IMG/VR virus record: IMGVR_UViG_3300045988_093071
Location: 1-31,122 of that record
DNA: 31,122 bases
Origin: a virus
Reading direction: 5' to 3' (one strand)
Below, one piece after another: positions 1 to 31,122 of this stretch. Numbering within the stretch: the stretch's first letter is position 1; each line of letters starts with the position of its first letter. A program made the position numbers and the translations under genes. Under the pieces are notes generated by a model. It made no database searches, was not told where the DNA came from, and worked only from the letters and a program-made list of their open reading frames with translations.

Positions 1-55
1 CAACTCCTACTTTACAAGAGAAACATATAACAATAGATAAAAACCTATCAATGAC
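1..55. repeat. Terminal overlap: 1-55 is identical to 31068-31122 (circular closure of a 31,067-bp genome)
   Basis: Direct comparison of the first and last 55 nt gives an exact match. An ORF is continuous across the junction. Confidence 0.95.
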
Positions 56-878
56 TGAAGTTAAACCTGATGCTGGCTATCAAGGTTTATCAAGTATTGA
101 AGTAGATGTAGAGATTCCAGTTGAGGAGCATAGAGAAGTTACTATTACAGAGAATGGAACTACAATGATTCATCCTGCAGATGGATATGATTATATGGAG
201 TTTATTGATGTAACTGTTAATGTTACGAATCCAATGAATACCTATGATATTACACAAGCTGTAGTTAATTTATATAGGTTTACGGGAACATCTGTTCCTG
301 CAAATGTTGTAGGTTGAGAAAATTTAGTTGATGGAAGATATAAATGTCAAAGATCAAAAATTAAGGAGTTCACTATGCAATTGCCTAAATTAGAAGATGG
401 CAGATATATGTTTACAGAATGTGCTGATTTAACATCATTCACTATTCCAATGCCTGAATTAACAGATGGGTCTAATATGTTTAGCAGAGGTACCTTATCT
501 GGATATAATAGCCTGAAAACACTTAATTTAGACGCTCCTAAATTAGTAACTACTACTAATATGTTTGGAGATTGCATTAGATTAACAGATGTAACATTAA
601 ACATTCCATCATACACATCTCAAGAAAGTTCAATAAATCCTATATTTTCAAAATGTAGTGGAATTACTAATCTTACAGTAAACGGTGAGCTTAGAGCAGG
701 ATTATATCTATCAGCAAGTACCAATCTTACTACTGATTCTTTAATGTCTGTTATTAATGCATTAGTTGATTTAACAGGGGAGAATAGCAAAACTTTAACA
801 TTAGGAGCTACCAATCTGGCAAAATTATCAGATGAACAGAAAGCAATAGCTACTAATAAAAACTGGATATTAGCATAA
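1..878 (+). CDS. BspA-type leucine-rich-repeat (LRR) virion / receptor-binding protein, copy 1. This is the 3' part of a 395-aa gene that starts at 30758 and crosses the circular junction. In-frame TGA at 315-317 is read as Trp.
   Basis: Track ORFs 51..317 and 375..878 share a frame and are separated only by TGA. The frame is open from nt 1 and continuous with 30758..31122. The read-through peptide ENLVDGRYKCQRSKIKEFT mirrors the next LRR unit PKLEDGRYMFTECADLTSFT. The N-terminal half has four ~36-aa repeats (..P[DA]xGY[DQ]xM..V.V.V). The C-terminal LSDEQKAIATNKNW tail is shared with the paralogs at 3418 and 5230. Confidence 0.8.
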
Positions 879-1099
879 TGGAACATTTACATATTGAGAC
901 TAGCATATTTATAAAGTTATACTCTGATGAAGGATATTTTATCACCTCATATAAAGAAGGTGATGATATTAAAGAGTATAGTGCATCAACTATTTTATAT
1001 TGCCCTTTAACCTTTGATATATCTATTTATAGGGTTATTGATGCAGAAACAAATGAAAGATATTTAAAAGAACAAGAGGAATCTTATAAAAATAAATAA
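878..1099 (+). CDS. 73-aa protein, paralog of 4346..4567 (possible fibre assembly or adaptor factor)
   Basis: ATG overlaps the upstream stop (TAATG). It shares YK..DIK.Y......CPL..D.......I..E.....YKEQ with the 4346 ORF, has the same length, and holds the same position between an LRR gene and a fibre gene. Confidence 0.6.
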   Translation: MEHLHIETSIFIKLYSDEGYFITSYKEGDDIKEYSASTILYCPLTFDISIYRVIDAETNERYLKEQEESYKNK

Positions 1100-1100
1100 T

Positions 1101-3416
1101 ATGGCAAACGAAACTGAAAAGACAATTCTTCCCTATCTTAATGTCCTTGAAGTCGAAACAATAGATAAGTCAAATGTGACTAAAGTTATTGTTATTGACA
1201 AGGATGATGAAGTTAAGGTTATGGATGGTTCTCAGTTAGGAACAAACAGTTATTTTGATATTCAAAATAAGCCTGAAATTAATGGAGTTGAGTTAAATGG
1301 AAGTATGACTTCTGATGAACTTGGAATTCCGTCAGTTGAAGGTGTTGATAATCAGATTACTGAGAAACTAGCTGACTATCCAACTAAAGAAGAGGTAACT
1401 GCAGAGATTACTGAAGCCACTGCTGGAAAGCAAAATACACTTGTTCAAGGTGATGGTATAGTAATTGAAGAGAATACTGTTTCTGCAGATTATAATACTA
1501 TTCGTAACAAACCATCTTTAAATGGAACTGAATTATCTGGAGCAGCTTCAATAGTACCTGCCATTAATATTCAATCAGTCCCATCTAAAGTTACTTTAGC
1601 TCCTGTATTTGGTAATCAAACTGGAGAAGCAGTTGAACTTCCAATATATAATACAGAGACTAATCAAGCTGGTATGGTTAATGGTCCTCTATATGCACAA
1701 TTAACAGATAAATATACCAAAGCTGAAATTGATGCTTTAAATACAGCTATTAATAAAGAGATAGCTTCAAAACAGGAAACGCTTACAGCAGGAAAGAATA
1801 TATCTATTATAGATAATGTAATCTCTGCTTTTGAGAATCATTTCTTACTTAATTTAGATGAGAATGATCCTGTAAGACAGAAACATATCTATGACTTTAT
1901 TAGAACTAATCTGGACTTCTATTTATTCTGCCAGATTACATATAAAGGTGATATTATAGTTATTCCTGTTGCAACTATTGAACATCCTGAAACTATTGAT
2001 TTATATGGTTATTATTTCCAAGATAATGGTGTATTAGTAGTTATTAATGCAATCTTAGTAAATAATGGTAATATGACTGTTAAAGTTACTGAGGTTGATC
2101 TTACTAATAAAGGATATACTAAAGAAGAAGTAGATGCCAAACTTGAGGAAAAACAAGGAGTATTTACTCCACAAGCTCCATTAGCTTTTAATGAAGATAA
2201 ATCCCAATTATCTGTAGATTTATCTGGATACCAACCAGTTGGTGATTATGCTTTAAAGAGTGATATCCCAACTAAAGTTAGTGAGCTTACTAATGATTCT
2301 AACTTTGTAACTGAAGCAGAGGTTTCTGGAGATTTAGCAGGTAAAGCAGATAAGACTTATGTTGATGAGCAGCTTGCTACTAAACAGCCTGTAGGAGATT
2401 ATGCAACAAAAACAGAACTTGCTGGTAAAGCTGATTCTTCTGTGGTAGAATCTTTATCTACTCAAGTAGCAACTAATACTTCAGATATATCAATTATTAA
2501 AACAAAACAAGAAGAAGATGGAGATAAGATTGATTCTCTTGATAAAGAGATGGCTACTAAGCAAGATTTACTTGTAAGTGGAACTAATATCAAAACAATC
2601 AATAGTCAGTCTTTACTTGGAGAAGGTAATATAGAAATTGAAAGTGGCTCTAATATTCCATTTCTATTTATAAATTCCACTACTCATCTTTCTGGAGATT
2701 TCGCTGCTGTTAAGAATGCTATAGCTAATAAAACACCATTTGAGCTTTATTATGTAAATATTCTAGGTTATGGTGATATAGCAGCTCCAGAAGTATGTTT
2801 TGTTTCAGGAGAAAATATTCAAGCTACATTCCATTTTGAATCTGGCACAACTAATCATACTTTAGTTACTGCTCAGATTACTCCAACTGGAGTTTCTGTA
2901 GATAAGAGTTACCATAATTATCAAGAACAATTAGTCTCTGGGACTAATATAAAGACTATTAATGGTGAAAGTATTTTAGGAGAAGGTAATCTTGAAATAT
3001 CTGGTAGTGGAGGGACTACCGATTATACTCAGTTAACAAATAAACCTCAGATTAATTCTGTTGAACTTAGTGGTAATAAGAGTCTTGAGGATTTAGGTAT
3101 ACCAACTAAGACATCTGAGCTTACTAACGATAGCGGCTTTTTAACTTCTATTCCTGATGAATATGTTACAGAAACTGAATTAAATGCAGGATTAGGAAAT
3201 AAACAAGACACTTTAGTTAGCGGAACAAATATTAAGACAGTTAATGGAGAAAGCTTGTTAGGTAGTGGAAATATAGATATTGAGAGTGTTTCTAATCCAG
3301 TTACTTATGGAAGTGGAACTCAACCACAAGTTCATACTATTCTTGTGGTAACTCAGTCTGAATATGATGCTATTTCAAGTAAAGATCCAAATACTCAATA
3401 TTTAATTGTAGAGTAA
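1101..3416 (+). CDS. Long tail fibre (771 aa) with internal repeats
   Basis: Intact ORF. It has three copies of LVSGTNIKT[IV]N[GS][EQ]S[LI]LG[ES]GN[IL].I (about nt 2571-2640, 2931-3000, 3213-3284) and three NKP.[IL]N[GS].EL.G motifs. Fibre-type motifs LSVDLSGYQPVGDYA and SELTNDS[NG]F are present. The protein contains no Trp. Confidence 0.75.
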   Translation: MANETEKTILPYLNVLEVETIDKSNVTKVIVIDKDDEVKVMDGSQLGTNSYFDIQNKPEINGVELNGSMTSDELGIPSVEGVDNQITEKLADYPTKEEVTAEITEATAGKQNTLVQGDGIVIEENTVSADYNTIRNKPSLNGTELSGAASIVPAINIQSVPSKVTLAPVFGNQTGEAVELPIYNTETNQAGMVNGPLYAQLTDKYTKAEIDALNTAINKEIASKQETLTAGKNISIIDNVISAFENHFLLNLDENDPVRQKHIYDFIRTNLDFYLFCQITYKGDIIVIPVATIEHPETIDLYGYYFQDNGVLVVINAILVNNGNMTVKVTEVDLTNKGYTKEEVDAKLEEKQGVFTPQAPLAFNEDKSQLSVDLSGYQPVGDYALKSDIPTKVSELTNDSNFVTEAEVSGDLAGKADKTYVDEQLATKQPVGDYATKTELAGKADSSVVESLSTQVATNTSDISIIKTKQEEDGDKIDSLDKEMATKQDLLVSGTNIKTINSQSLLGEGNIEIESGSNIPFLFINSTTHLSGDFAAVKNAIANKTPFELYYVNILGYGDIAAPEVCFVSGENIQATFHFESGTTNHTLVTAQITPTGVSVDKSYHNYQEQLVSGTNIKTINGESILGEGNLEISGSGGTTDYTQLTNKPQINSVELSGNKSLEDLGIPTKTSELTNDSGFLTSIPDEYVTETELNAGLGNKQDTLVSGTNIKTVNGESLLGSGNIDIESVSNPVTYGSGTQPQVHTILVVTQSEYDAISSKDPNTQYLIVE

Positions 3417-3417
3417 T

Positions 3418-6354: not shown

Positions 6355-6747
6355 ATGAATTATACTCTATTAATGCAAAATACAACTACTAAAGAAGTTT
6401 ATACATTTGATCTTGAAAATCAGAATTATTCTGAGAATATCTACTATAAGTTTGATATTACACTTCAAGAAGGAATGAGAGACGGTGAATATCAATATAT
6501 TTTATTTACTAATCCAAATAAATTTCAAGTTATAGTTGATGTAAACAATCCATTTAGATCAGAGTTATATGGCAATCCAGTTATTCTGGTTACATATAAT
6601 AATACTCTTACTAATGGTACTCAGATATTAGTTGCTGGTAAACCAATACCTATATTGGGAACAGGATTAATAAGAATTGGAGATTATGAGAATAATAATT
6701 ATCAATACGACAAACCTAATACATACGTAAGTTATGAGCGAAAATAA
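6355..6747 (+). CDS. Hypothetical protein (130 aa)
   Basis: Intact ORF and first gene after the terminator. I recognised no motif. Confidence 0.5.
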   Translation: MNYTLLMQNTTTKEVYTFDLENQNYSENIYYKFDITLQEGMRDGEYQYILFTNPNKFQVIVDVNNPFRSELYGNPVILVTYNNTLTNGTQILVAGKPIPILGTGLIRIGDYENNNYQYDKPNTYVSYERK

Positions 6748-7825
6748 AACAAAAGTTCAGTTAAGTGCTATTGATCCATTTATTGCAAGTAATATCGTAT
6801 TACCTACAGAAACTAAAGTAAGAGGAAAAGATTATGTAATGTGAGGAGAAGATAATAAATATCCATTATATCTATGGGATCTATATTTAAATGTAGCTAC
6901 TCTTCAATCTATCATTAATGGTACTGCTGACTTTATTGTTGGTAACGATGTTAAATGTAATGCTCCAGGATTTGAAGTAGTTGTAAACAAGAAAGGTGAG
7001 ACTATTATGGATATTATGCGTAAAGTATCTAAAGATAAGATGATTTTTGGAGGATATGCTTTACAAATAATTAGAGATATGTTAGGTAGAGTTTCAGAGA
7101 TCTATCATCTTGACTTTATGAAGATTCGTTCTGATGAAAAGAATGAAGTATTCTATTATGCTGATGATTGGTCTGCTTGGTCTATTAAAGCTATCAAATA
7201 TCCAAAATTTAATTATTCAGATGATAATCCTACAAGTGTTGTTTATAATAAGGGTTATATAACAAGAAAAGTATATCCAGTCCCTGTTTATGGTGCAGCT
7301 ATCCTATCTTGCGAAACTGAGAAGAATATTAATGAGTTCCATCTAAATTCTCTTCATAATGGATTTATGGGCAATCTTATCATTAACTTTAATAATGGAC
7401 AGCCTACAGACGAAGTTAAAGAAGAGATTGAGATGAATATCAATGAGAAGTTCTCTGGTTATCAGAATGCTGGTAGAGTTCTTATTTCATATAATGATGA
7501 TGAAACAAATAAGACTACTATTGAGCGTTTAGATTCTGATGATTTTGATGAGAAATATAGTGCTTTATCTGATAGGACAAGAGAACAGATATTCTGCGCA
7601 TTTAGAGCTAATAGTGTACTTTTTGGCCTTAACTACTCAAGTGGATTCAACGAACAAGAATTTAATGAAGCTTTTAAACTTTATAATCGTACAGTAGTTA
7701 GACCAATTCAGGTCGAAATAGTAGATACATTTGATAAGATATTTGGAATGAAAGGTTCAATAACTATAACTCCTTTTAGCTTAACTCCAAATGGACAAGA
7801 AGATAGCAAACAAAATGTTGAATAA
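6734..7825 (+). CDS. Portal protein, PBSX/P2-like size class (363 aa). In-frame TGA at 6842-6844.
   Basis: ATG 6734 is in frame with track ORF 7007..7825. The N-terminal ..KYPLYLWDLYLNVATLQSIINGTADFIVGNDV.. resembles the conserved N-terminal block of PBSX-family portals. The family call is from memory. Confidence 0.6.
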
Positions 7826-10747: not shown

Positions 10748-10909
10748 ATGAAATATTGGTTAAAATATGTAATTGCAGTAGTTATTATTCTGCTGATATG
10801 TTTACTAATCAAAGTAATTCCTTTTTGGATTACTGTAGTATTACTTGTAATAGGTGTGGCTTCACATCTATTTTATAGATATGTTATGATTAAAGATATA
10901 CTTAAATAA
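10748..10909 (+). CDS. Holin candidate (53 aa, two TM helices)
   Basis: It reads MKYWLKYVIAVVIILLICLLIKVIPFWITVVLLVIGVASHLFYRYVMIKDILK. It lies immediately upstream of, and overlaps (TAATG), the endolysin gene. It is below the ORF-track size cutoff. Confidence 0.55.
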   Translation: MKYWLKYVIAVVIILLICLLIKVIPFWITVVLLVIGVASHLFYRYVMIKDILK

Positions 10910-11361
10910 TGAAGTATTTCACACTCGAAGAATTAACAAGATCTGATACTGCTTCAATTAAGCATATAGATAACACTCCAGATGAGAGTATAACAGAGCA
11001 CCTGATAGAGTTGGTCGAGAAGCTTTTAGACCCAATAAGAGAGAGATGGGCAAAGTATTGTGATGACAATCAGCTTGGCAATGCAGGCATCAGGATTTCC
11101 TCTGGTTTTAGGAATAAGGAGCTTAATAAAGCAGTGGGAGGATCTTCAACTTCTGCTCATTTAACAGGGTATGCAGCAGATATATCTCCAATTAATGGTA
11201 ATATGAAAGTATTCCAAAGTTGGATTGCTGAAGCTATCGAAGAATTTGATTTCGACCAGTTGATATATGAAAGGCCTAGGAATGGTATAGCTAGTTGAAT
11301 ACACTTGGGATTAAAGAATAAAGACGGGATGCAAAGACGACAGAAATTTACTATTATATAA
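10909..11361 (+). CDS. Endolysin, peptidase M15 (zinc D-Ala-D-Ala carboxypeptidase-like) family (150 aa). In-frame TGA at 11296.
   Basis: It reads ..SSGFRNKELNKAVGGSSTSAHLTGYAADI..FDQLIYE.. and then, past the TGA, ..SWIHLGL.. This supplies the C-terminal W-x-H strand typical of this family. Confidence 0.85.
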
Positions 11362-11933: not shown

Positions 11934-11943
11934 TAAAAAAGAA

Positions 11944-11971: not shown

Positions 11972-12112
11972 TTATTCCATTATCTCAAATAATTTCTCAT
12001 CTTTAGGTATTAATTCTCCAGTTTGTAAATCTACTAAGAATTTACTATTTTCAGGAATTACATAAACGTAATTTATTCCATTTAAGCATAATTTATATGT
12101 AAAGTACTTCAT
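11972..12112 (-). CDS. Micro-ORF (46 aa), hypothetical
   Basis: It reads MKYFTYKLCLNGINYVYVIPENSKFLVDLQTGELIPKDEKLFEIME. It abuts the terminator and is the last gene of the leftward operon. Confidence 0.4.
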   Translation of the reverse strand: MKYFTYKLCLNGINYVYVIPENSKFLVDLQTGELIPKDEKLFEIME

Positions 12113-12113
12113 A

Positions 12114-12248
12114 TTAGTCAATATATGTTGCGTTAGGAATCTCTGGTTTTTCTTCTACTTCTTCCCAAACTAACCCTTTGTTTTGGTTTTCTAATTGAAC
12201 TATTCTATATTCTAGTTCTTTAAGCTTTTTAAATAAAAAATCATCCAT
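12114..12248 (-). CDS. Micro-ORF (44 aa), hypothetical coiled-coil peptide
   Basis: It reads MDDFLFKKLKELEYRIVQLENQNKGLVWEEVEEKPEIPNATYID. It is packed with 1-2 nt spacers to its neighbours. Confidence 0.4.
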   Translation of the reverse strand: MDDFLFKKLKELEYRIVQLENQNKGLVWEEVEEKPEIPNATYID

Positions 12249-12250
12249 AA

Positions 12251-12463
12251 TTAATCAAATTTTGAAATAAATGTAAAATCTCTTTGTGCTAATACTCTAT
12301 CTATAATATCTCCTAATTTCTTAGAATTCTCTTTAAATTCATTCATTCACTTATCAAACTCTTTAATAGTATCTTCTGACTTTTTAAGAGTTTCTTTAAT
12401 ATCCGCAATTCTATTTAAATATGAATCTTGGTCTAATAATAATGTATCCTTTGCTTCTAACAT
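12251..12463 (-). CDS. Small ORF (70 aa), hypothetical. In-frame TGA (plus-strand tca at 12347-12349).
   Basis: It reads MLEAKDTLLLDQDSYLNRIADIKETLKKSEDTIKEFDKWMNEFKENSKKLGDIIDRVLAQRDFTFISKFD. The start overlaps the helicase 3' end. Confidence 0.4.
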
Positions 12464-16538: not shown

Positions 16539-16560
16539 AAATAATATATTTTAAATAAAA

Positions 16561-17254: not shown

Positions 17255-18485
17255 AGGATATAGCCCATTTATCTATCAATTAAAGGTACATACTGCTATG
17301 AATGACTCATATAGGTCTGGTAAAATCTTTACAATTAAAGCAAAGAGACAGGTAGGTAAATCGTTCTTGGCAGAAAATGAATTATTGAGATTCGCTATAA
17401 ATTATCCTGGGAGTGTTAATTGTATAGTTGAACCAACTCTTGGACAATCTAGAAAGGTATTTAAAGAACTTGTACAAGCTGTTATAGACTCTGATATATT
17501 AAGGAGAAAGAATGAAACCTTATTAGAATTAGAGTTTAATAATGGCAGTTCTATACTATTTAGATCTGGGGAACAAATGGATTCATTACGAGGATTCTCC
17601 GTTAGTGGATTATTAGTACTTGATGAGGCAGCTTATCTTAAAGATGAAGTATTTGAAATTATTAAGCCTACCACTGATGTATGGAATGCTCCAATACTTA
17701 TAATTAGTACTCCAAGGTTTAGAGAAGGATTCTTTTATGAATGTTTTAAAAAAGGCTTTGATGGCAATTTTAGCAAATATTATCAATCCTTTGATTGAGC
17801 ATTAGAAGATACCTCTATGCTATTGAGTGAGGATAAACTTGAAATGTATCGCCTTACAACCTCCAAAAATAAATTTAGAACTGAATATCTTGGGGAGTTT
17901 GCAGATGATGATGGTTGTCTCTTTAATAATATATCTAACTGCATAATTGATAAAAAACCTGAATATCATAATCTTTATATTGGAGTTGACTGGGCTACTG
18001 GTTCTGGTAAAGACTATACTTGTATTACAGCTTTAAATGAAAATGGGCAGATGGTCTTTATAAAGTATTTTAACGACAAAACTCCAACAGAACAAGTTGA
18101 TTTACTGACAAATATATTTACTGAGTATCAGGGATTTATAAAGATAGTTCAAGTCGAACAAAACTCAATAGGTTCAGTGTTTTATGATATTCTTGTAAAA
18201 AGGAATTCTAAATTACGGATAGTTAAGTTTTTAACTACTAATAAGTCTAAAGCAGCTATTGTAAATAAGCTACAAGCTGCATTAGAAAACGAAAAGATTG
18301 GTATTTTAAAGGATGATAAACTATTAAATGAATTAAGACTATATGAAGCCAGTTATAATCCAAAGACTGGAAATGTATCATATAATGCTCCATCTGGATT
18401 TAATGATGATACTTGTATATCTTTAATGTTAGCTTATGATGCTTTAAATACAAATAAAGGAACTTATAATATTGCAATTAAATAA
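17238..18485 (+). CDS. terL: Terminase large subunit (415 aa; alternative start at 17202). In-frame TGA at 17796.
   Basis: Walker A is KAKRQVGKS and Walker B is GLLVLDEAAY. The RNaseH-like nuclease half (IGVDWATGSGKDYTCI...FNDDTCISL) lies beyond the TGA. Track ORFs 17202..17798 and 17817..18485 share a frame. Confidence 0.9.
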
Positions 18486-19887: not shown

Positions 19888-22092
19888 ATGACATTTATAC
19901 CAAGTAAATTAGGAATACCAAGAAGTACAGGAACATATCCTGTTAAATGGGAAAATCCAGGATGGGGTCTTACAGGAGTATATGATTATTGGCTATGAGG
20001 AGATGACTATTCAGAAGAGGGTCCATTAGATGTTACTATTTCTAATGCAAGTACAAGCGGTTGTACTATTAACTTTAGAAACCCCTCAACTATTACAACG
20101 GACTCTTCTACAATATTTAGATTCTATCCAAGAGGACATACTACTGCTTTATTGGAAGATACTATGCCAGTTTATCTTCATAGTAAAGCCCCTGGATATT
20201 ATCCTGCAAATAGCAGTATAACAGTACCCAATACTGGAGGTACTTATACTGTTGAATATATATTAGGTAGAGCAGATATTATTAAATGAACTTGTGATGT
20301 AGTAAAGGCTATTGCTTTAGTAAGTGTTGAGGTATTAGAATGGGATTCCTGCTCTATTAAGTTTAAGATTACAGTAAATGCTAATACTCAATGGAATACT
20401 AATCTTACTGGAACTATTCAATTAGGAGCTTATTATGATACTAATAAGTTTATTTCTTATAGTTATGGCTTTACTATTGAAAAGAGTGGAGTTCCAGAAG
20501 ATTTGAAGTTAATAGTTAATCCATCATCTGGAACTTATGGAGCTGGCCCAGGTGTTACTGATAGATTTATGTGCACTCTAACAAGTACTGAGGAAGAGAT
20601 AACAGAATTATCTGTAACTTGTCCAGGATCTTCAAATATTATGGTTGATAAAGTTAATAAATACTTTGTTATTACTTTTCCTGATAATGCTACAACTAGT
20701 ATTAAAAACTATGCTGCATTAGTTACTGCAATAACCTCTGGTGGATATACATTAAATGCTACAGTTCCAATTACTAAGTTAGCTACTTCTTTATCTTTAA
20801 AGTCCAGTGTTAGTATTGGATATACAGCAGGAAGATATAAGATAGACGGTACAGGTTCTGATAATTTAGATGATGTAGTATTTGCAATTCCAGCAGATGC
20901 TCAGACTTGGTTAAGTAAAATGGAGTTAGTAATAGAAAGAGGAACTCCAGGAGGTATGAATATTGTAAGTATTAATTTTGATGCTACAGAAAATACAGGT
21001 AATGCTTCAAGAAAAGCAACAGTTGGAGTTACAGTAGTAAAAAATGGTTCTAGTGTTATAAATACTTCATTTAATATTGTACAAGAGGTTAAAGCAGATA
21101 TATCTCCAATATGGAAAGATTATATATGAGAAGAGGAAACTTTAAATGATTTTATAGAATATCATCTTGATTATGCAGGAGATACTATTTATGCTGGTAA
21201 AGCTTATAAATATCCTGATACTACAGGAGTACAATTTTTACTTAATGATGTATCTGAAGACTTTTTAGATAACGGCATTATATTTCCATCTTTTGGAAAG
21301 ACAGAAATTATACCTAACTATTTAAAAACCTTTACATTAATAACTTCAAGCGGTAGTGAAAAGCCTGTAACATTCTTTAATGATTGGTCTTATAAAGATA
21401 CAGATTTAACTAAGCCTTATTTCTTAAGTGATCCTATTGACACTTTAGTTGATTCAAGACAGTATGTATTATGTAGTTGGATATTCCCAACTGGTGAAGG
21501 TGTGCTTAATAGACGTTATACTACACCTGAAGGAGTAGCAACTACTGTAGATATTACATTACGACAAGGAATTAATGGTTATACTTATGCAGAACCTTTA
21601 GGCAATTTACTTTTAGAATGCAAGAGTAAATATGAAATAGGATTTGTTGAATCTGGCTCTTTTACTACAACTATTAATTATCAGATTGATACTACTAATA
21701 AGAATTATGTATTATATTATACTAATGCTTATGGAGGATGGGATAGTTTATTAGTACAAGGTAATGTTAAACAAACGGATCAAATTGAATCTCAGACTTA
21801 TGTAAGAAAGGTATTAAATACCGCTTCTCAGTTTAGTAAAAATAAGTATTTAAACACTATAGTTCCAGAATGGACTTTATATACTAATTATCTTACAGAT
21901 ACTCAAGCATCAAAGATGCACCATCTATTAGAATCTACTATGGTATATTTACATAATCTGGAGGATAATAAGATTATTCCTGTAATAATTACTAATAATA
22001 GTTGTGAGTATAAGACATATAGTAATCAGGGTAAAAATATGTTTTATTATACTATAGAAGTGCAAAGTTCTCAAGATAAATATAGAAAATAA
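19888..22092 (+). CDS. Large tail or baseplate protein (734 aa) with a BACON-like Ig domain. In-frame TGAs at 19996, 20287 and 21127.
   Basis: ATG 19888 is in frame with track ORFs 20503..21129 and 21502..22092, with no TAA/TAG between them. The segment ..AQTWLSKMELVIERGTPGGMNIVSINFDATENTGNASRKATVGVTV..NIVQ has the BACON-type pattern. The C-terminal half could be distal-tail-protein-like. Confidence 0.65.
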
Positions 22093-22093
22093 A

Positions 22094-25000
22094 ATGAGAA
22101 AGAATATTAAATTATTTATTGCAAATAAAGAGGTTGACTGTAGTGAGGGAATTAGTCTTCCTATAACTTATACAGTTGAGGATTTCCAAAACCCCACTAT
22201 AGTCAAGAACTCGTTTAGTAAGACGATTTCTATACCTGGTACCAAAAATAATAATAAGATATTTGGAGAAATCTATAAATTAGATAGATTACAACATATT
22301 GAAGACGGTCAGTTTAGCGGTATTAATTTCAATCCTTCAAAACGAGTTGATTTTGGAATCTATGATAATGGAGATTTAATAGAATCTGGTTATATGCAAT
22401 TAAATACCATACAAATTAAACAGAAGGTCATTACATATAACATTACTTTATATGGAGGCTTAGGAGATTTCTTCTATGGGCTTAAATATAAAGAAGATGG
22501 ATCATTAAGAACTCTTGCTGATTTACAATACTTTATTACAGATGAGGAAGGTAATGTTTTACCTGCTGATACTGAAATGGATTTTTATATTAATAAAGAT
22601 TTTGTAAATAAATCATTTAATAATTATTGGAATAGCGACTTTACTACATTAGATAGCTTTGTTGGATTTATTCCTGCATATAATGGTTTATATGAGAATT
22701 TTGACAATGAAACTTGTTTAATAAATACAGCAGGAGACACTCTATTTCCCAAATCTGCAAGCGATGGAGGAACAACATATACTCCATATAATGGTTATGC
22801 TTTAGCACAATTAAATAGAGCTTATACAGAATGGGAAATAAGAGACTTACGCAGTTATATGCAAAGACCAGTGTTAAAACTTTCTAAGCTTATAGAAACT
22901 ATTTGTAGAAAAGAGAATTCTGGATATGATGTAATATTTGATGATTACTTCTTTAATTATGCAAATCCTTATTGGAGTAAATCATTTGTAGCTCTTCCCT
23001 TGCTTGGAAGTAGTGAAGATGAAGAATCAGATTCTATTAAAGAGAACGCAAAGCTTATTAAATATGGAGCAGATAACTGGTGGGTAGGATTAAAACCTGG
23101 AGGAACAACAACTTCATATAATTGAGGATATACTTCTGTTGATGGCAGCGAGGTAATAGTTCCTGGAGAAGGAAATATTATTGATTTATCTGCAACACCT
23201 GCTAATACTTTAGTAAATATCTCAATGGATTTTCAGGTGTTCTTCAATGCTAATGCTAGTTCCTCTGCAAATAATCTTTATTTATCATATGTACGCAATG
23301 GAAAAATGGGAAATACTGAGTATCATAATGATCCGTATAGAACATCTTTAACTGTTCAGATACTTGTATATAATGCCGATGATGAATCTGTTCCATCTAA
23401 ACCTATAGCATATTCTCCATTGTATAATTTTACAAATAAGATTAATACTCAAGTTCAAGCTGGACCATCTACTTGGTTTAATTATTATCCTCTTACTGAT
23501 GCTCCTGTTGAGGCTATTTATGGCCATTTTGTTAAAGATAGTGGGCAGAGGTACTATTTTAAAAGTGATACGGGAAGCAATACCTTTAGATTTGTAGTTA
23601 AAGATATGCCAAAAGTAAATAAGATAAGGGTGTCAATTCAATTTGCCAGAAGAACAGAAAGTCTCTATAATCAAGATGCTTTATGGATTTCAGATAATAT
23701 GAACCCAAATAATGTTACTGCATCAAGAGTAGCAGGATGATCTGAATTTTTATATGATTCAGATCAATATACATTAATTGCAAGTTGGCCATCGGCTGTA
23801 ACATCTGATGCTCTTATTACTAAGCAGAAGCTTTTAAAGACAGAATCTACACCTGCGGATTATTTACTTAGCTATGCTAAAATGTTTGGATTATATTTTA
23901 TTAAAGATATAGATTCCAAAACTATTAGAATATTTACCAGAAACAACTTCTTTAAAAATAAGATAACAGATTGGTCTAAACGAATTGATTATTCAAAAGA
24001 TTTTTCAGTTAATCCATTATTATTTGATAAGAAGTGATATACTATGAAACAAGAAGCTCCTGAGACGTATTATGCAAAGAAATATAATAAACAGTATGAT
24101 ATAACTTATGGGCAACAGAGATTAGATACAGGATATAATTTTAATAGTGATAATACAGATTTATACTCAGATAACTTATATGAAAATGTAATATCTGCAA
24201 GAGATGTAGATAAGTATTATAGAAACTATTTTAATAGTTCAAGTTCACCTGTTCCTTGCTTCTTAAATGATAATATTACTTATCAATTATTCCATTCTAC
24301 ATCTACTGAAAGAAAAACAAACGATCAGGATCTTTATGGAGTAAATTTCATTGATTCATCTAAGACTACAGAGTGGTGGGATGTTCCTGGTAATGATATA
24401 TTTGCAAAGACTTGTTTCTATTCATTAGATAATGATGAGCAAAGTTTAGAAGAAATTAAATCGACATTACTGTTCTATAATGGCAATGTAGAGATGAAAG
24501 ATATTGATGGAAATCCTATTACATATTGGATTACTGATGATGTTACAGAAATGTCTGTATTAAATGATTCTGAACCTTGCTATTTATATACTACTAGAGA
24601 AACTAATGAAGCTGGTGCTAAGATTGCAATTAAAAGAACCTCTTTACCACAATTCATAAGATATAATATATCAAGTAATTATGTAATATCTAGTTGGGAT
24701 TTTGGATTACCAAGAGAAATTTATATAGATAAAATTGCATATCCAGAACAAAGTGTTATTTATTCTCAATTCTGGAAAGAGTTCTATACTGATCAATTTG
24801 ATGTTAATACTAAGAAAGTTACTTGTTTTGTAAAATTAAATGATTTACAAGTAAACTTTGATATGTTAAGACAATTTTATTATTTTGAAGATAGTTATTG
24901 GGTATTAAATAAAATAGATGCTTATGATGTTAATTCTGATGCAACTACCAGATGTGAATTTATAAGAGTTCAAGACATCAATAATTATATAGGAGGAGTA

Positions 25001-25543
25001 TCTACTTTAGGTAAATACATAGAAGTAAGTGACCCAGAAGTTACTGTAGGGTATGAAGCTGGAAGTAAAGTTGTAACTATAGAATCTAATGTTCCTTGGA
25101 AAGTTAGTTGGTATAATAATTTGAAGATTACAAATATTTCACCAATGGAAGGATTACCTGGAATTAGTACTATGACTATTGAATATAATGAAAATCCTAA
25201 ATATATTGAAGATAACTTCTATTTAAGTTTAGTAGCTCAATCTGATATTTATGAAAGATTAGGACAAGTATATTTTTATCAAACTCCTGATCCATCTAAA
25301 TCAGTAAAGCTTTCTGGAAAAGTAACAGATGCAGATGGTAAAGTATTAGATGTACAACCTTATATCTATGTAGATAATGACAACTTTGTAGATAGTACAT
25401 ATTGTGATGCAACAACTGGAGAGTACTATTTATATGTTCAAAAAGGAGTTCCATTCCATTTTGAAGTACAATTATCAAGTGTTGTTAAATATGAGGAAGA
25501 ACTTACTTTAAATGCAGATACTATTAAAAATATTACTATTTAA
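22094..25543 (+). CDS. Very large tail tip or baseplate protein (1149 aa) ending in BACON-like and CarboxypepD_reg-like domains. In-frame TGAs at 23123, 23738 and 24035.
   Basis: Track ORFs 22094..23125, 23225..23740 and 24044..25543 share one frame with clean linkers. The C-terminus reads ..VTVGYEAGSKVVTIESNVPWKVSWYNNLKITNISPMEGLPGISTMTIEYNENP.. and then ..LSGKVTDADGKVLDVQPYIYVD..DATTGEYYLYVQKGVPFHFEV.. Confidence 0.7.
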
Positions 25544-25545
25544 AT

Positions 25546-27861
25546 ATGGCTGAAGAAATTAAAAAGGTAATAGATATAGATACTACTAAAAGTACAAAGT
25601 CAATCAAGCAGCTACGAGAACAAGTAGCTGGCTTGACTGACGAACTTGAATCATTGGAAATTGGTAGTTCTGACTATTCCAAAAAACTTGAAGAGCTTGT
25701 AAGTGCACAAAACAAGCTTAATGTAGCTACTGAATCTATGCAAGGTAAGACTGTAAATGCAGTTAAAGCTTTTGATAGTATTAACCAAGTAGCTGGCGGT
25801 CTTGCAGGTGGAGTTTCGGCTGTAAGTGCTGCATTTACTTTATTTGGAAGAGATACAGAGAATCTCCAGAAAACTATGGTTAAGCTTCAAGCAGCTATTG
25901 CTATAGTTCAAGGAATTGGAGGATTAAAGGGTTTAGGTGAAGGTGTTCTTAATGGAGTAAAATCATTTAAGGCTTTATCTGTTGCGATGGCTGGTGCTAC
26001 GACTGCTACTGGAGGTTTATCTGTTGCGATGGGAGTGCTACGAACTGCTATTATATCAACAGGTATTGGAGCATTAGTAGTAGCATTAGGAATGTTAGTA
26101 GACTTTGCAATCAAAGCAGCATCTGGAGTTGATGATTTAAAAATTAGTATTTCAGGGTTAAAAGACATAACAGACCAATGAGGAACTAGCTATGCACAAG
26201 CTAATACAGAAATTGCAGGATTAGAAAGACAGAGAGAAAGAGATTTAGCTGAAGGTAAAAAGAATGAAATACAAATCTGAAAGGATTATGCTCAAGCATT
26301 AGGTGAATTAGATGCTAAATTATTCCAGCAATTTGGAAGTGTAACTAAAGCATATAATGATTCATTTACAGATATACTTAAGAGTAATAAATACTTCAGA
26401 AAAGAGTTTAAGAAATCTGGATATGACACTTGGGAGGAGTATTCACAAGCTATACAATGAGGATTAAAAACTAGTTCTAATGAAGTTGATTTCTTTTTAA
26501 GTAAGTTAAATGATGATCAAAGAGCTGCTTACGACGAAGCTTCTGGTATCTACAATGCATATATAGAGAAGAGAAATAGTTTAATGCAGAAAACTTCAGA
26601 AACTTATGAAAAGATTAAACTGATGGAAATCTCTGCAGAGCGTAAAGCCAGAGAAGAGGCTAAGGCTAACTATCTAAAGAATATTGAAGATGCAAAGAAA
26701 CGTAACGCTGATTTACTGAAGGTTATCAATGATTTCTATGAAGAGAATAGAAAACTGCTATTAGATGATGAAGCTAGAGAGTTAGATGAATTAAATACCA
26801 AATATCAAAATCAATTAGATGCTCTTAAAACAGCTAAAGATAAAGAGCTTATAACAGTTGAGGAATATAGAAAGAGATTAAAGCAAATAAATGATGCTTA
26901 TGATAAAGAGTATCTAGACAATCAGAACGAGCGGTATCGTAAAGAAATTAATAATAGAATTAATTCTTTAGAACAACTTAGAGAACGAGAGAATAGATTT
27001 TTTGATCAAAGGCAATCTGAGTTAGATACTAAATATAATAAGACATATACACATAATGCAGGTCTTGGAAACGAATACAAGACTGCGGGAGATATAAAGA
27101 GTGAAAAGAACGATAGAATAACACAATCTAATGAGCTACTTGAAATACAGTTAGGATTCTACGAAAGAGATAATAAAAGAATTGGAGAATTACAAACCAC
27201 TTTAAAAGAATCGTTTGATAATGGCTTAATAACTCAAGAAGAGTATAATAATGAGTATGCAAGATTAAATGCAGAAAGAGAAGCAAATGATACTGCTGCT
27301 GCAAATGCTATTGTAGCTAATGGAGAAAAAATAAAGGCTGCTAAAAAAGATGAAATTAAAGACATTGTAGCTGCTGTTCAAGGAAGTTTTGCTGCATTAG
27401 GAAGTTTAGGTGATGCTGTAGCTCAAAACTATAAATTTGAGGCAAATAATTCCAAGAAGTCATTAAAGGAGAGAGAAAAAGCTATGGAAAATTATAAGTC
27501 TATAGCTAAAATATCTACCGTATTTAATACCGCTTCTGCAGCAATGAATGCTTATAACTCTATGGCAGGAATTCCAGTAGTAGGTCCTGTATTAGGTGGT
27601 ATTGCTGCTGCTGCAGCTATTGCTATGGGATTACTTCAAATTAAAAATATTGAAAATGAAGAAATATCTGGTAGTGATGTATCATCTTCAGTATCCGCTC
27701 CATCTGCACTTACACAAGCTCCTGTTGAGTATACTCGAAATTTACTTGGAAATAAAGAGACTGATGAACTTAATAATCCAGTTAAGTGTTATGTTGTTGA
27801 ATCTGATATTACTTCAGCTCAAACTAAGGTAGCAGTTACTGAATCTAATGCTTCATTCTAG
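25546..27861 (+). CDS. Tape-measure-like protein (771 aa; coiled coils plus Gly/Ala-rich hydrophobic segments). In-frame TGAs at 26179, 26278 and 26458.
   Basis: Track ORFs 25546..26181 and 26584..27861 share a frame with no TAA/TAG in the 400-nt linker. Features are long heptad-like segments, GGLAGGVSAVSAAFTLFG and IPVVGPVLGGIAAAAAIAMGLL hydrophobic blocks, and a TAG stop. Confidence 0.5.
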
Positions 27862-27973: not shown

Positions 27974-28567
27974 ATGGAAATTACTTATAATGATCTTCCA
28001 TTATTTCAGGCAGTGATTACTGATGATTGTGATGGAATAGAATATGTTGCTTTAACAAGCAAACCAGCTACACAAGTTAACTGGGTTGCTTTTAGTAATT
28101 CTCAGAAGTTCTCGATGGATGAAGATAAGCATTTAGTAACATCTTGCTTAATGTTAAGTGATACTCCAATTTTCAGACGAGATGAGAAACTCGGAGAATA
28201 CTACATACAGTATGATAAGGAAACTCTTCGTAAAATGGCAGAGAAGATGCTGTATGATAAGAGAACTACAGATGTAAATATTGAACATTTAGAAGATTCT
28301 GATTTAAATGGAATTACTCTACAAGAAATCTATGTAAAGGATATTAATAGAGGAATATCTCCAGTTGAATTCCAGGATGTTCCTGATGGTTCTTTATTTG
28401 CCACTTATAAAGTAGATAATCAAGTTATTTGAGATGCAATTAAAGCTGGTAAGTTTAAAGGGTTCTCAATTGAAGGTTTATTTACTTTAGAGAGAAAGTC
28501 TGATGAATATGACGAAATAAAAGAGATCCTTAATATGATTAAGAAGATAAAAAGAGTTAAACATTAA
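27974..28567 (+). CDS. XkdF-like prohead protease candidate (197 aa). In-frame TGA at 28430.
   Basis: The N-terminus reads ..GIEYVALTSKPATQVNWVAF.. After the TGA it reads ..VIWDAIKAGKFKGFSIEGLF.., the W..[IV]K.G...G.S[IV].G block typical of the PBSX XkdF family. It lies upstream of the scaffold and capsid genes. Confidence 0.6.
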
Positions 28568-28580
28568 AATTATTAATTAA

Positions 28581-29183
28581 ATGAGCAAATTCACAAGAAT
28601 CAAGCTTGAATTGGCTAAAATGCTTGCAAAGTTCAGTGATATTAAAACTGATAAGGCAGTACTTACTTGGGATTCAGATGAAGACTTACGCGCTGGTATG
28701 GATGTATATGTTCAGGATGAGAACGGAGAATACAAACCTGCTGAGGATGGTGAGTATGTAACTGAGGATGGAAAGACGATTGTTGTTAAAGACGGTAAAG
28801 TAGAGTCTGTAACTGATCCTAAAGCTGAGGTTGATCCAGAAGAAGCAGCTAAATCAGAAGTTGATGCTGCTTGTGGGAAACGCAAGGTAGAAACTGCTGA
28901 AGAGCCAGTTGATCCTGAAGTAGCTACTGATGGTGACAAAGAAACTGTAACTGATGCAATTGATGCAATTCATCGCGAAATTAATGAGCTTTATGACATT
29001 GTTGATAAGCTTGTTAAGAAAGTAGCTGAATTAGAGGGTAAATCTGAAGCTACAGAAAAGACGGTTGAAAAGATGAGCAAAATGAGTGCTGCATTTTCAG
29101 CTGAGGAACAGATAGAAGGTAAAGCTTCAATAATGACTGGCAATCCTGTTATTGATAAAAAGCTTAAAAACTTTATTGGTTAA
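28581..29183 (+). CDS. Scaffolding protein candidate (200 aa, acidic, coiled-coil)
   Basis: It is Asp/Glu-rich with a helical C-terminus (EINELYDIVDKLVKKVAELEGK), contains no Trp, and lies directly upstream of the capsid gene. Confidence 0.55.
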   Translation: MSKFTRIKLELAKMLAKFSDIKTDKAVLTWDSDEDLRAGMDVYVQDENGEYKPAEDGEYVTEDGKTIVVKDGKVESVTDPKAEVDPEEAAKSEVDAACGKRKVETAEEPVDPEVATDGDKETVTDAIDAIHREINELYDIVDKLVKKVAELEGKSEATEKTVEKMSKMSAAFSAEEQIEGKASIMTGNPVIDKKLKNFIG

Positions 29184-29205
29184 TTATTAAATTATTTATA
29201 AAATT

Positions 29206-30111
29206 ATGGCAAATAGTCCTGTAATGACTAGTCTTACTGCTTATGTAGAGCAGAGACGTCTTCCTCTTATTAAAGAGGCTGTATTAAAGGCTAAGAGTGC
29301 TTCGTTGTTCAATCTTCAAACTGACATCAAAACTAGTGCTGCTCTTAACCTGTTATCAACTGCTATTCAGTTTGGCGATGGCCTAGCTTGTGGTTGGGAT
29401 GAAGCTGGAACTCAGACTCTTTCTCAGAGAATTCTAGCTACTGGTAATATTAAGATCAATATGGCATATTGTGATAAAGAGATGCTTAAATACTGGACTC
29501 AGTATCAAGTACGAGTAGCTGCTGGTCAGAAGACGCTTCCTTTTGAAGAGGATTTCGTAAATGCAGTAGTTGAGAATGTTAAGGCTGCTATTGAGACTGC
29601 TATTTGGCAGGGTGATACTGCTTCTGAAACAAATAACCTGAAGTATTTTGATGGTCTGTTAAAGATCCTTGGTGCTGCTGATGGGGTTGTTGATGTAGTA
29701 ATTACTGGAGCATCTGCTTATGATGACATTATGGCTGTTTATAACGCTATTCCTGAGAAGGTTCTGGATGGTGCTTCTATCTTAGTTGGCAGTGATACTT
29801 TCCGTAAATTTATCCAGGAGTTAGTTGCTAAGAACTACTACCACTATAGTGGTGAGAATCTTAATGGTGAGATTATGCTTCCTGGTTCGCAGGTTAAAGT
29901 AATCGCTGTTAATGGTCTTAATGGAACTGATAAGATTGTTGCTGGTCAGTTAGATAAGAACTTCTTCTATGGTTGCGATATGATGAACGATGAAGAGAAG
30001 TTTGAATTGTGGTATTCACAAGATTTCCGCGAATTTAGATTAGCTATTGAATTTAACGCTGGTGTACAGGTTGCATTCCCTGATGAGGTAGTTCTTGGTG
30101 CCAAAGCCTAA
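29206..30111 (+). CDS. Major capsid protein candidate (301 aa)
   Basis: The call rests on its position after the protease and scaffold genes, its more GC-rich and biased codon usage, and its size and pattern (..LPFEEDFVNAVVENVKAAIETAIWQGD..), all typical of HK97-fold capsid proteins of gut phages. There is no in-frame TGA. Confidence 0.65.
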   Translation: MANSPVMTSLTAYVEQRRLPLIKEAVLKAKSASLFNLQTDIKTSAALNLLSTAIQFGDGLACGWDEAGTQTLSQRILATGNIKINMAYCDKEMLKYWTQYQVRVAAGQKTLPFEEDFVNAVVENVKAAIETAIWQGDTASETNNLKYFDGLLKILGAADGVVDVVITGASAYDDIMAVYNAIPEKVLDGASILVGSDTFRKFIQELVAKNYYHYSGENLNGEIMLPGSQVKVIAVNGLNGTDKIVAGQLDKNFFYGCDMMNDEEKFELWYSQDFREFRLAIEFNAGVQVAFPDEVVLGAKA

Positions 30112-30149
30112 TTTCAATAGAGTTTAACTTTAAATAAGATTGAAATTAT

Positions 30150-30674
30150 ATGGCTTGTTTAATAACTATCGCTGGTATTACCCTGGATTGCGAATCTTCG
30201 CTTGGTGGTATCAAACAGGTATGGATTACTCAGTACGATAATGTTAAGAGTGTAACTGTAGATGATGAGACTAATCAAATCTCAGCTATTACTCTTGAAT
30301 CAGATGCTAAATGGTATAATTACCAATTCCGCAAAGGTACTGGTTCTCTAACCTCAACATTGAACGTTGACGAAACTGCAGGAACCAACTATGTAAGTAA
30401 TGAGCTTGCTCTTGTATTTACAAAGATGGAGACTAAGAAAAGAATCGAGATTGCTGCTCTTTCTATTGGACAACTTGTAGTTGTTGTAGAAGATTCTAAT
30501 GGCAAATACTGGTTCTTAGGAAAAGATGACTATGTAAGCGCTTCCGCTGGTACGGGTGTTACTGGTACTGCAAAAGGTGATCAGAACGCTTATACGCTGA
30601 CTTTAGCTACTGACTCTGAATCATATCCTTATGAGTTGAGTGCTGAAGCTATTCAAAGTGTTGTAGGTGCTTAA
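30150..30674 (+). CDS. Tail tube-like or head-proximal structural protein (174 aa)
   Basis: It is co-expressed with the capsid gene and followed by a strong terminator. The pattern C..SLGGI..V.....F.F.KGTGS......G.....L.L.F......I..L..G.L.V.V.D.NGKYW.LG resembles siphovirus tube proteins. This is uncertain. Confidence 0.4.
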   Translation: MACLITIAGITLDCESSLGGIKQVWITQYDNVKSVTVDDETNQISAITLESDAKWYNYQFRKGTGSLTSTLNVDETAGTNYVSNELALVFTKMETKKRIEIAALSIGQLVVVVEDSNGKYWFLGKDDYVSASAGTGVTGTAKGDQNAYTLTLATDSESYPYELSAEAIQSVVGA

Positions 30675-30683
30675 CAACAGAAG

Positions 30684-30718
30684 AGGGGCGAGTATTAATT
30701 TACTTGCCCCTTATTTTG
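30684..30718 (+). terminator. Intrinsic terminator after the capsid/tube operon
   Basis: GGGGCGAGTA-ttaatt-TACTTGCCCC is a 10-bp stem with one G-T pair, followed by TTATTTTGTTT. Confidence 0.8.
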
Positions 30719-30757
30719 TTTATGGACAGATAATTAACTATTTATATTTTATAGAAA

Positions 30758-31122
30758 ATGGCTATTAAATATACAACACCAGAAGTGGCAAAGAATACAA
30801 CTTCAAGAGATATTGAAGCTTTAGCTGCTCAAGAATGTAAATTACAGGAGAAGTCTGTAGAATATACTCAGAATGCTGAGTTCGTTGTAACTCCAGATGA
30901 GGGTTATGATGGTATGTCGAAAGTAAATGTATCTGTTGATGTTGTTGTTCCTACAGTACAAGCTACTAAAGAGATTACAATTACATCTAACGGATTAATA
31001 GATATTTTACCTGATCCAGATTATGATGTTATGGAGAAGGTTTCTGCACAAATAAATGTTCCAGTACCAACTCCTACTTTACAAGAGAAACATATAACAA
31101 TAGATAAAAACCTATCAATGAC
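30758..31122 (+). CDS. 5' part of LRR protein copy 1 (continues at nt 56 -> 878 through the circular junction)
   Basis: ATG 30758 follows the 18-nt conserved start context. The frame is open to the window end and in phase with nt 3 onward at the start of the window. Confidence 0.8.
   Translation, partial: MAIKYTTPEVAKNTTSRDIEALAAQECKLQEKSVEYTQNAEFVVTPDEGYDGMSKVNVSVDVVVPTVQATKEITITSNGLIDILPDPDYDVMEKVSAQINVPVPTPTLQEKHITIDKNLSM
31068..31122. repeat. Terminal overlap, second copy (identical to 1-55)
   Basis: Exact identity to the first 55 nt of the window. Confidence 0.95.

Follow-up and report, generated by a model that had tools for sequence, protein, structure and literature searches.

Only 35% of the gut phages described as using genetic code 4, in which TGA is a tryptophan (Trp) codon, carry a suppressor tRNA, and standard-code Firmicutes or Bacteroidetes are predicted as their hosts (Borges et al., bioRxiv 10.1101/2021.08.26.457843). 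Code-change proteins, namely release factor 1 (RF1) and Trp-tRNA synthetase (TrpRS), are known from only two Jade genomes (bioRxiv 10.1101/2021.08.26.457843), and a matching tRNA is present in only 13% of phages that reassign TAG (Gulyaeva et al., PMC9610469). Borges et al. (Nat Microbiol 2022) raised non-canonical RNAs and modification of the host machinery, and left the matter of the missing decoders open (bioRxiv 10.1101/2021.08.26.457843). How UGA is decoded without a suppressor tRNA in a standard-code host is thus an acknowledged question for about two thirds of known code-4 phages. Here we analyse IMG/VR virus record IMGVR_UViG_3300045988_093071, a stretch of 31,122 nucleotides (nt) that we refer to as the window, with respect to its use of TGA as a Trp codon and the source of the decoder. 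The missing-decoder puzzle that it poses is real, but is already documented for most phages of this kind. What the analysis adds is the absence of tRNAs throughout the clade, a marked division between genes that use TGA and genes that avoid it, a few candidates for a switch of code and, from the literature, a lead toward a host tRNA-Trp.

Several lines of comparison bear on the reading of TGA. Under code 11, open reading frames (ORFs) of at least 100 amino acids (aa) cover 76% of the plus strand, as against 90% when TGA is taken as sense, and in the latter case the ORFs adjoin one another in the manner typical of phages. Codon counts were made on a curated set of 34 genes, 19 of which (56%) contain the 32 in-frame TGA codons, beside 79 TGG; these genes end in TAA (30) or TAG (4) and never in TGA. 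When the window is aligned with 11 close genomes, its TGA codons face TGA (77%), TGG (20%) or Tyr and Phe codons, and GGN is never encountered. At the same positions, standard-code relatives have Trp 95 times, Tyr 20, Phe 11 and Gly twice (n = 154), a profile identical to that of TGG positions; codon 153 of the protease, a TGA, is Trp in 37 of 39 standard-code relatives. TGA therefore encodes Trp (code 4), not Gly (code 25). The two codons are polymorphic at 44 of 137 Trp sites in the close clade, so that UGA must be decoded well enough for the choice of codon to be almost neutral in many genes. TGA nevertheless accounts for 29% of Trp codons, against 62-97% of A-ending codons in all other NNA/NNG pairs.

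That the window holds the complete circular genome of a tailed phage, 31,067 base pairs (bp) long, is well supported. An exact direct repeat of 55 nt occurs at both ends (1-55 and 31068-31122, 100% identity), and this terminal overlap indicates a circular assembly with 31,067 bp of unique sequence. With the ends joined at that length, the ORF beginning at 30758 runs in frame into the ORF ending at 878, and the resulting gene encodes a 395-aa fibre protein of the leucine-rich repeat (LRR) type. The genome has a G+C content of 30.6% and about 38 genes, and no integrase was detected in it. Because it is complete, no decoder gene can sit outside the window, and the possibility of a tRNA lying beyond its ends is ruled out.

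The same sequence is present in a public assembly from human faeces (VOGT16-1_SAMEA3879528 scaffold_1340), and a capsid protein identical to its own is indexed in 136 blocks of the public collection of assemblies, besides hundreds of near-identical variants; almost all contigs with this capsid protein measure 29-33 kb. The clade is very common in human faeces. Its capsid family comprises standard-code members, TAG-recoded members and the TGA-recoded clade to which the window belongs, which spans capsid identities of 67-100% and accounts for 65 of the 97 long IMG/VR loci. Two TAG-recoded cousins, L019 and L025, have capsids 48-51% identical to that of the window. No nucleotide or capsid match to a cultured relative was obtained in the phage collection searched. 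For the terminase, identity to cultured phages does not exceed 28% (Thermus and Halorubrum phages), which is uninformative on the host.

The genome encodes no recognisable decoder of its own, a conclusion that is well supported. A first-pass annotation, made from the sequence by eye, had reported neither a tRNA-like sequence nor an ORF resembling a release factor or Trp-tRNA synthetase, and the dedicated searches bear it out on both counts. With default and intron settings, ARAGORN finds no tRNA or tmRNA in the window. Relaxed thresholds return one match within coding sequence (-ps; 0.25 in shuffles) or 16 matches, all in coding sequence and at chance level (-ps80; 11.1 +/- 3.1 in dinucleotide shuffles). 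No genuine tRNA with a UCA anticodon was found in relaxed, intron or mitochondrial modes. Rfam yields nothing tRNA-like in the whole window at E<=1, and a search of the main non-coding stretches with laxer filtering, at E<=10, is likewise empty. An armless 'tRNA(tca)' called in mitochondrial mode at 10461-10524 (plus strand), inside gene 10090-10746, lacks a T-arm and was rejected because diverged TGA-recoded relatives keep neither the anticodon loop nor the stems. A low-score (tca) match that recurs near 8550 in relatives is absent from the window calls. Stem-loops of the form YU-UCA-RN number only two genome-wide, each in coding sequence, and intergenic space is small, the biggest gaps being of 405, 262 and 154 nt.

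Among proteins, Pfam searches of every ORF translated with TGA as Trp detect no release factor, aminoacyl-tRNA synthetase or deaminase; they do identify a portal, a large terminase, an S78 protease, an M15 endolysin, a tail-tip domain, GIY-YIG and HNH homing endonucleases and a helix-turn-helix (HTH)/sigma-r4 protein. The clade as a whole shows the same lack, since a search of 91 loci (1.57 Mb) from TGA-recoded relatives, which jointly span both halves of the genome, returned no tRNA. All 165 fetched loci contain just two tRNAs, a host tRNA-Leu and a suppressor tRNA(CUA) in the TAG-recoded cousin L019. The latter, labelled Pyl by ARAGORN, lies at 8781-8868 of L019, directly upstream of the helicase gene.

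The use of TGA differs sharply between genes. Counts of TGA and TGG over all distinct alleles of each gene in the clade, with the share of TGA, are as follows.

Helicase: 1 TGA, 153 TGG (1%), in 35 alleles down to 47% identity
Major capsid protein (MCP): 3 TGA, 175 TGG (2%)
Gene at 30150 (g30150): 2 TGA, 107 TGG (2%)
Scaffold: 0 TGA, 37 TGG (0%)
Holin-like ORF: 0 TGA, 33 TGG (0%)
Gene at 14534 (g14534): 0 TGA, 15 TGG (0%), TGA-free in 15 of 15 alleles
Portal, DUF6712 protein and protease: TGA share 9-13%
Terminase: 33 TGA, 45 TGG (42%), TGA in 26 of 26 alleles
Endolysin: 47 TGA, 60 TGG (44%), TGA in 34 of 34 alleles
Tail genes: TGA share 32-97%
Homing endonucleases: TGA share 61-76%, the highest

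Recoding is thus partial. Early genes are compatible with the standard code, and late and lysis genes need TGA to be read as Trp, with the exception of the head genes, which are also poor in TGA. Every allele of the terminase, the endolysin and the three large tail genes has at least one TGA. Full-length translation by a standard-code ribosome is possible only for the superfamily 2 (SF2) helicase, three micro-ORF products (one with a TGA in the window), the 79-aa product of g14534 and the TGA-poor head proteins. Given the fast turnover between TGA and TGG (44 of 137 sites), selection must be keeping TGA out of the helicase and head genes, and a cell with native code 4 would not impose this.

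In these respects the phage is like the code-4 gut phages of Borges et al.: TGA aligns with Trp, the source is the gut, a standard-code host phylum is predicted, lysis and tail genes are recoded and at least one replication gene remains in the standard code. As in 65% of the code-4 genomes of that study, a suppressor tRNA is not detectable. The phage fits the core definition of a code-4 phage (TGA as Trp, partial recoding, standard-code early genes) without the optional module of tRNA, RF1 and TrpRS. It differs from Jade and Sapphire, clades with code-4 members whose genomes measure 150-200 kb and in some cases have a code-change module of suppressor tRNA, TrpRS and RF1, in being 31 kb long and having none of these. 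It also departs from the general description of structural genes as recoded by Borges et al., in that its head genes (capsid, scaffold) avoid TGA.

The early region is built around a single divergent intergenic region. Its elements, together with all three copies of a 50-nt palindrome found in the genome, are as follows.

14457-14488, plus strand: promoter directed toward the gene at 14534
14408-14377, minus strand: promoter directed toward the helicase operon
14319-14288, minus strand: promoter directed toward the helicase operon
12411..14129, minus strand: predicted SF2 helicase of 572 aa, the only large minus-strand gene, with 4 TGG and no TGA
11972..12463, minus strand: three micro-ORFs of 70, 44 and 46 aa downstream of the helicase, kept in 39 of 39 covered clade loci
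About 11936-11976: bidirectional terminator hairpin, sraA-like, following the micro-ORFs
14534..14773, plus strand: 79-aa membrane-anchored protein (g14534), the first plus-strand gene after the promoter
14164-14213: 50-nt palindrome, TGTAAC-N38-GTTACA, upstream of the helicase
19289-19338: 50-nt palindrome upstream of the tail module, with the loop inverted
27872-27921: 50-nt palindrome upstream of the head module

The sigma-A promoter consensus of Bacteroidota consists of TTTG at -33 and TAnnTTTG at -7, 19-21 nt apart. A search for TTTG-N18-22-TAnnTTTG returns exactly three sites in the genome, all with N20 and all within 14288-14488. The genome-wide count of three is not significant by itself (1.43 in shuffles); what is significant is the clustering of the sites, their orientation and their conservation. 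Upstream of the helicase, one or more of these sites is present in 33 of 36 relatives, and two in 29 of them, for a background of 0.022 per 600 nt.

The helicase has no TGA in the window and is therefore translatable in the standard code. Its AlphaFold2 model (pLDDT 82) is matched by Foldseek to the two-RecA helicases RecQ, DEAD-box and Mfd (E~1e-8). A role as a translation-related factor was rejected, as the structure is that of a generic SF2 helicase and has no specific link to translation. The gene is preceded by a leader of about 150 nt, and the micro-ORFs that follow it are presumably co-transcribed with it. The 70-aa micro-ORF contains a single TGA (12349-12347, minus strand), and if this is read as a stop, a 38-aa product results, directly followed by an in-frame ATG and a 31-aa ORF. 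Code-4 gene calls in relatives treat the 38-aa and 31-aa ORFs as one 70-aa protein. The product of this micro-ORF would accordingly differ before and after a switch of code. PHROGs annotation of the early proteins gave nothing useful.

All three 50-nt palindromes are intergenic and are kept in close relatives. They conform to TGTAAC(T/C)TTTTT...AAAAA(A/G)GTTACA with the loop motif ATATTT(T/G)G, and no copy has a loop resembling a UCA anticodon. Their role is probably in regulation or termination, and they may act as late promoters, operators or terminators.

Expression signals and chromosomal relatives converge on the host. The first-pass annotation had proposed a host of Bacteroidota type from three perfect TTTG-N20-TAnnTTTG promoters at 14288-14488, from an essential lack of Shine-Dalgarno sequences and from domains in virion proteins. 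The promoters are correctly oriented and conserved as described above, and a Shine-Dalgarno-like 4-mer is seen in only 3 of 32 leaders, with A at -3 in 23 of 32, so that promoters and leaders both uphold the proposal. Initiation of translation in Bacteroidetes likewise proceeds without Shine-Dalgarno sequences, from A-rich leaders with A at -3 (PMC6847099). The domain argument stands in part: similarities to BACON (E=0.0018) and LRR_5 (E=8e-5) are seen but fall below Pfam cut-offs, and CarboxypepD_reg is not detected at E<=0.01.

Relatives of the capsid were sought in one genome per prokaryotic species, using a 12-sequence alignment (a first set of 42 sequences was too diverse). The scan gave 31 loci, ten of them in contigs of more than 50 kb, far above phage size. 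Nine of the ten are titled Bacteroidota (L014, L030-L032, L035-L037, L042, L043) and include Bacteroides sp. UMGS1534 (647 kb), two complete Bacteroidia chromosomes of 3.8 Mb, Flavobacterium and Dysgonomonas; the tenth, L034, is labelled Agrobacterium. These large-contig relatives show only 26-52% capsid identity and use the standard code. Phage-sized contigs with the capsid are binned with assorted unrelated taxa, as mis-binning would give. A homologue of the helicase lies in a Hymenobacter chromosome.

Because promoters, leaders and chromosome-borne capsid relatives are all of Bacteroidota type, we assign the host to the Bacteroidota with good confidence, and the habitat suggests Bacteroidales. 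This host most likely uses the standard code, on account of the pattern of TGA avoidance and of surveys of human-microbiome genomes. In a survey of 4930 species genomes from the human microbiome, TGA is a sense codon in only 18, all of them below 1 Mb and from known code-4 or code-25 lineages, and no human-associated Bacteroidota species genome is among them (PMC8153819). Bacteroidia also typically keep an autoregulated prfB (PMC10798248).

As the genome lacks a decoder, the decoder would have to come from the infected cell. We see about an even chance that decoding is supplied by an infected standard-code cell, probably through the host tRNA-Trp and possibly after a switch induced by the phage. 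Expression would then have two phases. In the first, host promoters of the sigma-A type would drive early genes that are free of TGA and so readable by a standard-code ribosome, namely those of the SF2 helicase, the three conserved micro-proteins and the 79-aa membrane protein. This would correspond to the early phase in the standard code that Borges et al. proposed. The terminase, the endolysin, the tail proteins and the homing endonucleases would all need UGA to be read as Trp, and every function by which the cell is committed to assembling virions and to lysis would depend on this reading. The most economical source of the decoder would be a host tRNA-Trp that reads UGA. Near-cognate reading of UGA by the CCA anticodon of tRNA-Trp is the classical basis of UGA leakiness. 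A form of tRNA-Trp(CCA) whose anticodon stem is 4 bp long reads UGA in Escherichia coli, and this form is the only tRNA-Trp in 24 Bacteroidales genomes, Bacteroides oleiciplenus having both forms (PMC13092985).

Since all phage genes end in TAA or TAG, release factor 2 (RF2) is never needed by the phage, which could tolerate the loss of RF2 competition or induce it by means of a TGA-free early product. Constitutive decoding would sit badly with a helicase gene so strictly kept free of TGA, a pattern that suggests a timed switch instead. Such a switch, if encoded by the phage, would have to be among the few TGA-free early products or in the helicase leader. That the clade itself switches a Bacteroidales cell to UGA as Trp without any tRNA gene, via an early protein or a small RNA, is a proposition that we hold only tentatively and regard as rather doubtful; one possible route would be the inactivation of RF2, leading to efficient reading of UGA by the host tRNA-Trp.

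A number of observations weigh against decoding by the host cell as outlined here. Up to 11 TGA codons occur in certain tail-gene alleles, and that many in one gene requires efficient decoding, of at least about 80% per codon; ordinary near-cognate reading by tRNA-Trp(CCA) against an active RF2 is not known to reach this level. No phage protein has a recognisable link to RF2, tRNA or the ribosome according to Pfam, PHROGs and structure comparison. The near-absolute exclusion of TGA from the helicase is hard to explain by constitutive decoding through a host tRNA, and the TAG-recoded cousin L019 solves the same problem with an ordinary suppressor tRNA. The host is placed at the level of the phylum, no CRISPR spacer or prophage junction having been found for the TGA clade. 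There is also no significant bias away from strong RF2 contexts after sense TGA: the following base is T in 15% of cases and C in 4%, as against 23% and 8% after TGG, and nucleotide context was consequently dropped as a sign of RF2 competition. The lack of TGA stops is itself weak evidence, and we discount it because A+T-rich standard-code relatives likewise have few or none.

The first-pass annotation had listed three possible sources of decoding: a host with native code 4, a suppressor supplied in trans and a hidden non-canonical decoder. The set is a sensible one, but its members are not equally likely, native code 4 being disfavoured as the weakest of the three, and the puzzle was already in the literature. 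A suppressor tRNA(UCA) provided in trans by another genetic element of the cell, be it a plasmid, a prophage or a second recoded phage (for instance a crAss-like one of the same host with TGA recoded), would agree with the lack of a decoder in the genome and its relatives. Recoded gut phages with suppressor tRNAs are common and infect Bacteroidetes, and the tRNA-Sup(CUA) of L019 demonstrates that tRNA-based switching exists in the family. We consider this source unlikely all the same, as an obligate second element would be a severe constraint on an extremely prevalent clade whose members encode their own capsid, packaging, tail, lysis and helicase functions, and a suppressor residing constitutively in a standard-code host would harm it. 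Nor is any linkage to another element seen, the 148-kb contig that might have provided one being a chain of related 30-kb genomes. This contig, IMGVR_UViG_3300045988_175865 (148,631 nt; loci L072, L135 and L161), assembles about five related clade genomes of 29.8 kb: a stretch of 2,256 nt repeats exactly at a distance of 29,846 nt, with divergent sequence beyond. It was accordingly rejected as a host junction, a helper phage or a jumbo phage.

A host lineage that natively uses code 4 and has no RF2, and whose code the phage shares, would account at once for why some 90 related loci contain no decoder, for the absence of genes ending in TGA and for the free exchange of TGA and TGG at a third of Trp sites; new UGA-to-Trp lineages are moreover still emerging, for instance Patescibacteriota JAKLIH01 (PMC13092985). 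Such a host is hard to reconcile with a TGA share of just 29% of Trp codons at 30.6% G+C, where other pairs are 62-97% A-ending, or with a helicase (1 TGA, 153 TGG) and head genes almost devoid of TGA. The M15 peptidoglycan peptidase, which itself contains TGA, rules out wall-less Mollicutes, and hosts of the Candidate Phyla Radiation with code 25 are ruled out because TGA never pairs with Gly codons and Gly occurs at 2 of 154 aligned positions. Promoters, leaders and chromosome-borne relatives are of Bacteroidota type, and no human-associated Bacteroidota species genome has sense TGA (PMC8153819), so that we judge native code 4 to be quite improbable. Also very unlikely, in our assessment, is a phage RNA of non-canonical form, split, permuted, armless, ribozyme-processed or embedded in coding sequence, that tRNA finders would miss. 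Borges et al. proposed such RNAs for phages without a detected suppressor, and the link between theta ribozymes and phage tRNAs testifies that recoded gut phages can have an unusual tRNA biology (PMC10879173); among unexplained features that could be invoked here are the three conserved 50-nt hairpins and the leader, about 150 nt long, of the helicase. The evidence from the window runs the other way. Relaxed ARAGORN matches stay at shuffle level, the only UCA candidate is not kept in diverged relatives, and the two UCA anticodon-like stem-loops are both coding. Rfam reports nothing tRNA-like at E<=10 in non-coding regions, and the small intergenic space holds hairpin elements without a UCA loop.

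The phage can also be set against other recoded systems. The TAG-recoded cousin L019, also A+T-rich, has a homologous capsid (51% identity), helicase (50%), portal and endolysin, but it reassigns TAG and places a tRNA(CUA) upstream of the helicase, where the TGA clade has promoters and a hairpin and no tRNA. A sister phage of the clade, L091 (IMGVR_UViG_3300029905_000019; 67% capsid identity, 28% G+C), has no TGA in 20 ORFs, as stop or as sense, and has the appearance of an intermediate with TGA unassigned, such as recoding by codon capture would be expected to pass through. Recoded crAss-like phages (Crassvirales) of Bacteroidales resemble the phage in their Bacteroidota host, a G+C content of about 30% that is low relative to the host, the reassignment of a stop in late genes and a high prevalence in the gut; the phage belongs to an unrelated lineage, is one third the size and has neither an RNA polymerase nor a tRNA array. 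Phages of hosts with native code 4 or 25 (Mollicutes; Absconditabacteria and Gracilibacteria) share the use of sense TGA without a phage suppressor. In those phages about 90% of genes have TGA (Borges et al.), read as Gly in code 25, as against 56% and Trp here, and the phage is unlike them in excluding TGA from early and head genes and in encoding a peptidoglycan hydrolase. The UGA-reading variant of tRNA-Trp (Zinderia; Fakih et al. 2026) allows UGA to be read as Trp without a UCA anticodon and occurs in some standard-code Bacteroidales, but it is a property of a cellular tRNA gene and not a feature of this phage.

The remaining genes are as follows.

14773..17254, plus strand: small genes downstream of the plus-strand promoter, several with an obligatory TGA (g14773, 14845; HNH endonuclease, 15575; HTH/Sigma70_r4 protein of 81 aa, 16075; membrane protein, 16296)
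17202..18485, plus strand: terminase large subunit (Pfam Terminase_6N/6C); TGA 17796 (codon 199) is Trp in 4 of 5 standard-code relatives
19888..27861, plus strand: three large tail genes of 734 aa, 1149 aa and 771 aa (the last tape-measure-like), with three in-frame TGA each
27974..30674, plus strand: head module of S78_2 protease (one TGA, 28430), scaffold-like protein, MCP and g30150, with TGA almost absent
29206-30111, plus strand: major capsid protein, named 'Major capsid protein' in nr
6734..7825, plus strand: portal (Pfam Phage_portal); TGA 6842 (codon 37) aligns with Trp 18, Tyr 16 and Phe 3 times
10748-10909: holin-like ORF of 53 aa, TGA-free, preceding the endolysin
10909..11361, plus strand: endolysin (Peptidase_M15_3, E=2.9e-14); TGA 11296 (codon 130), in S-W-IHLG, is Trp in 4 of 4 standard-code relatives
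7791-8423, 9506-10090, 11364-11933 and 15197-15688: free-standing homing-endonuclease genes, three GIY-YIG-type and/or NUMOD, one HNH/NUMOD

Under code 11 the three large tail genes would break into at least eight fragments, and over 24-50 alleles TGA makes up 32-65% of their Trp codons. A further 771-aa protein, a tail fibre with a Phage_tail_C tip domain encoded at 1101-3416, has no Trp in the window, and its other alleles use TGA for 32 of 33 Trp codons. Two paralogous 73-aa ORFs (880-1101 and 4346-4567), each just upstream of a fibre gene and called as genes in relatives, may be fibre-assembly chaperones. In the region of small genes, a 102-aa ORF (15681-15989) and the 81-aa HTH/Sigma70_r4 ORF (15973-16218) overlap by 17 nt in different frames, and could together form a split or frameshifted sigma-like factor of the phage. 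The 81-aa ORF has TGA in 18 of 21 alleles, so that its product would be possible only after a switch of code. The homing-endonuclease genes vary in presence between near-identical relatives, and their TGA share, the highest of all, indicates an adaptation to circulating among TGA-recoded phages.

For the annotation of gut viromes, the practical consequence is that standard gene callers split at least 19 genes of this phage and so hamper its description. For the family, a single capsid lineage includes standard-code, amber-recoded and opal-recoded members. Within the wider question of decoding without a suppressor tRNA, the phage is a compact and very common example, with 31 kb of sequence, no tRNA in about 90 relatives and a sharp split between TGA-free genes and genes that require TGA. 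A phage-encoded switch is narrowed to five small early products and one leader RNA, the alternative being a UGA-proficient variant of the host tRNA-Trp. If a protein or small RNA did prove to operate the switch, it would represent a tRNA-independent mechanism of genetic-code switching.

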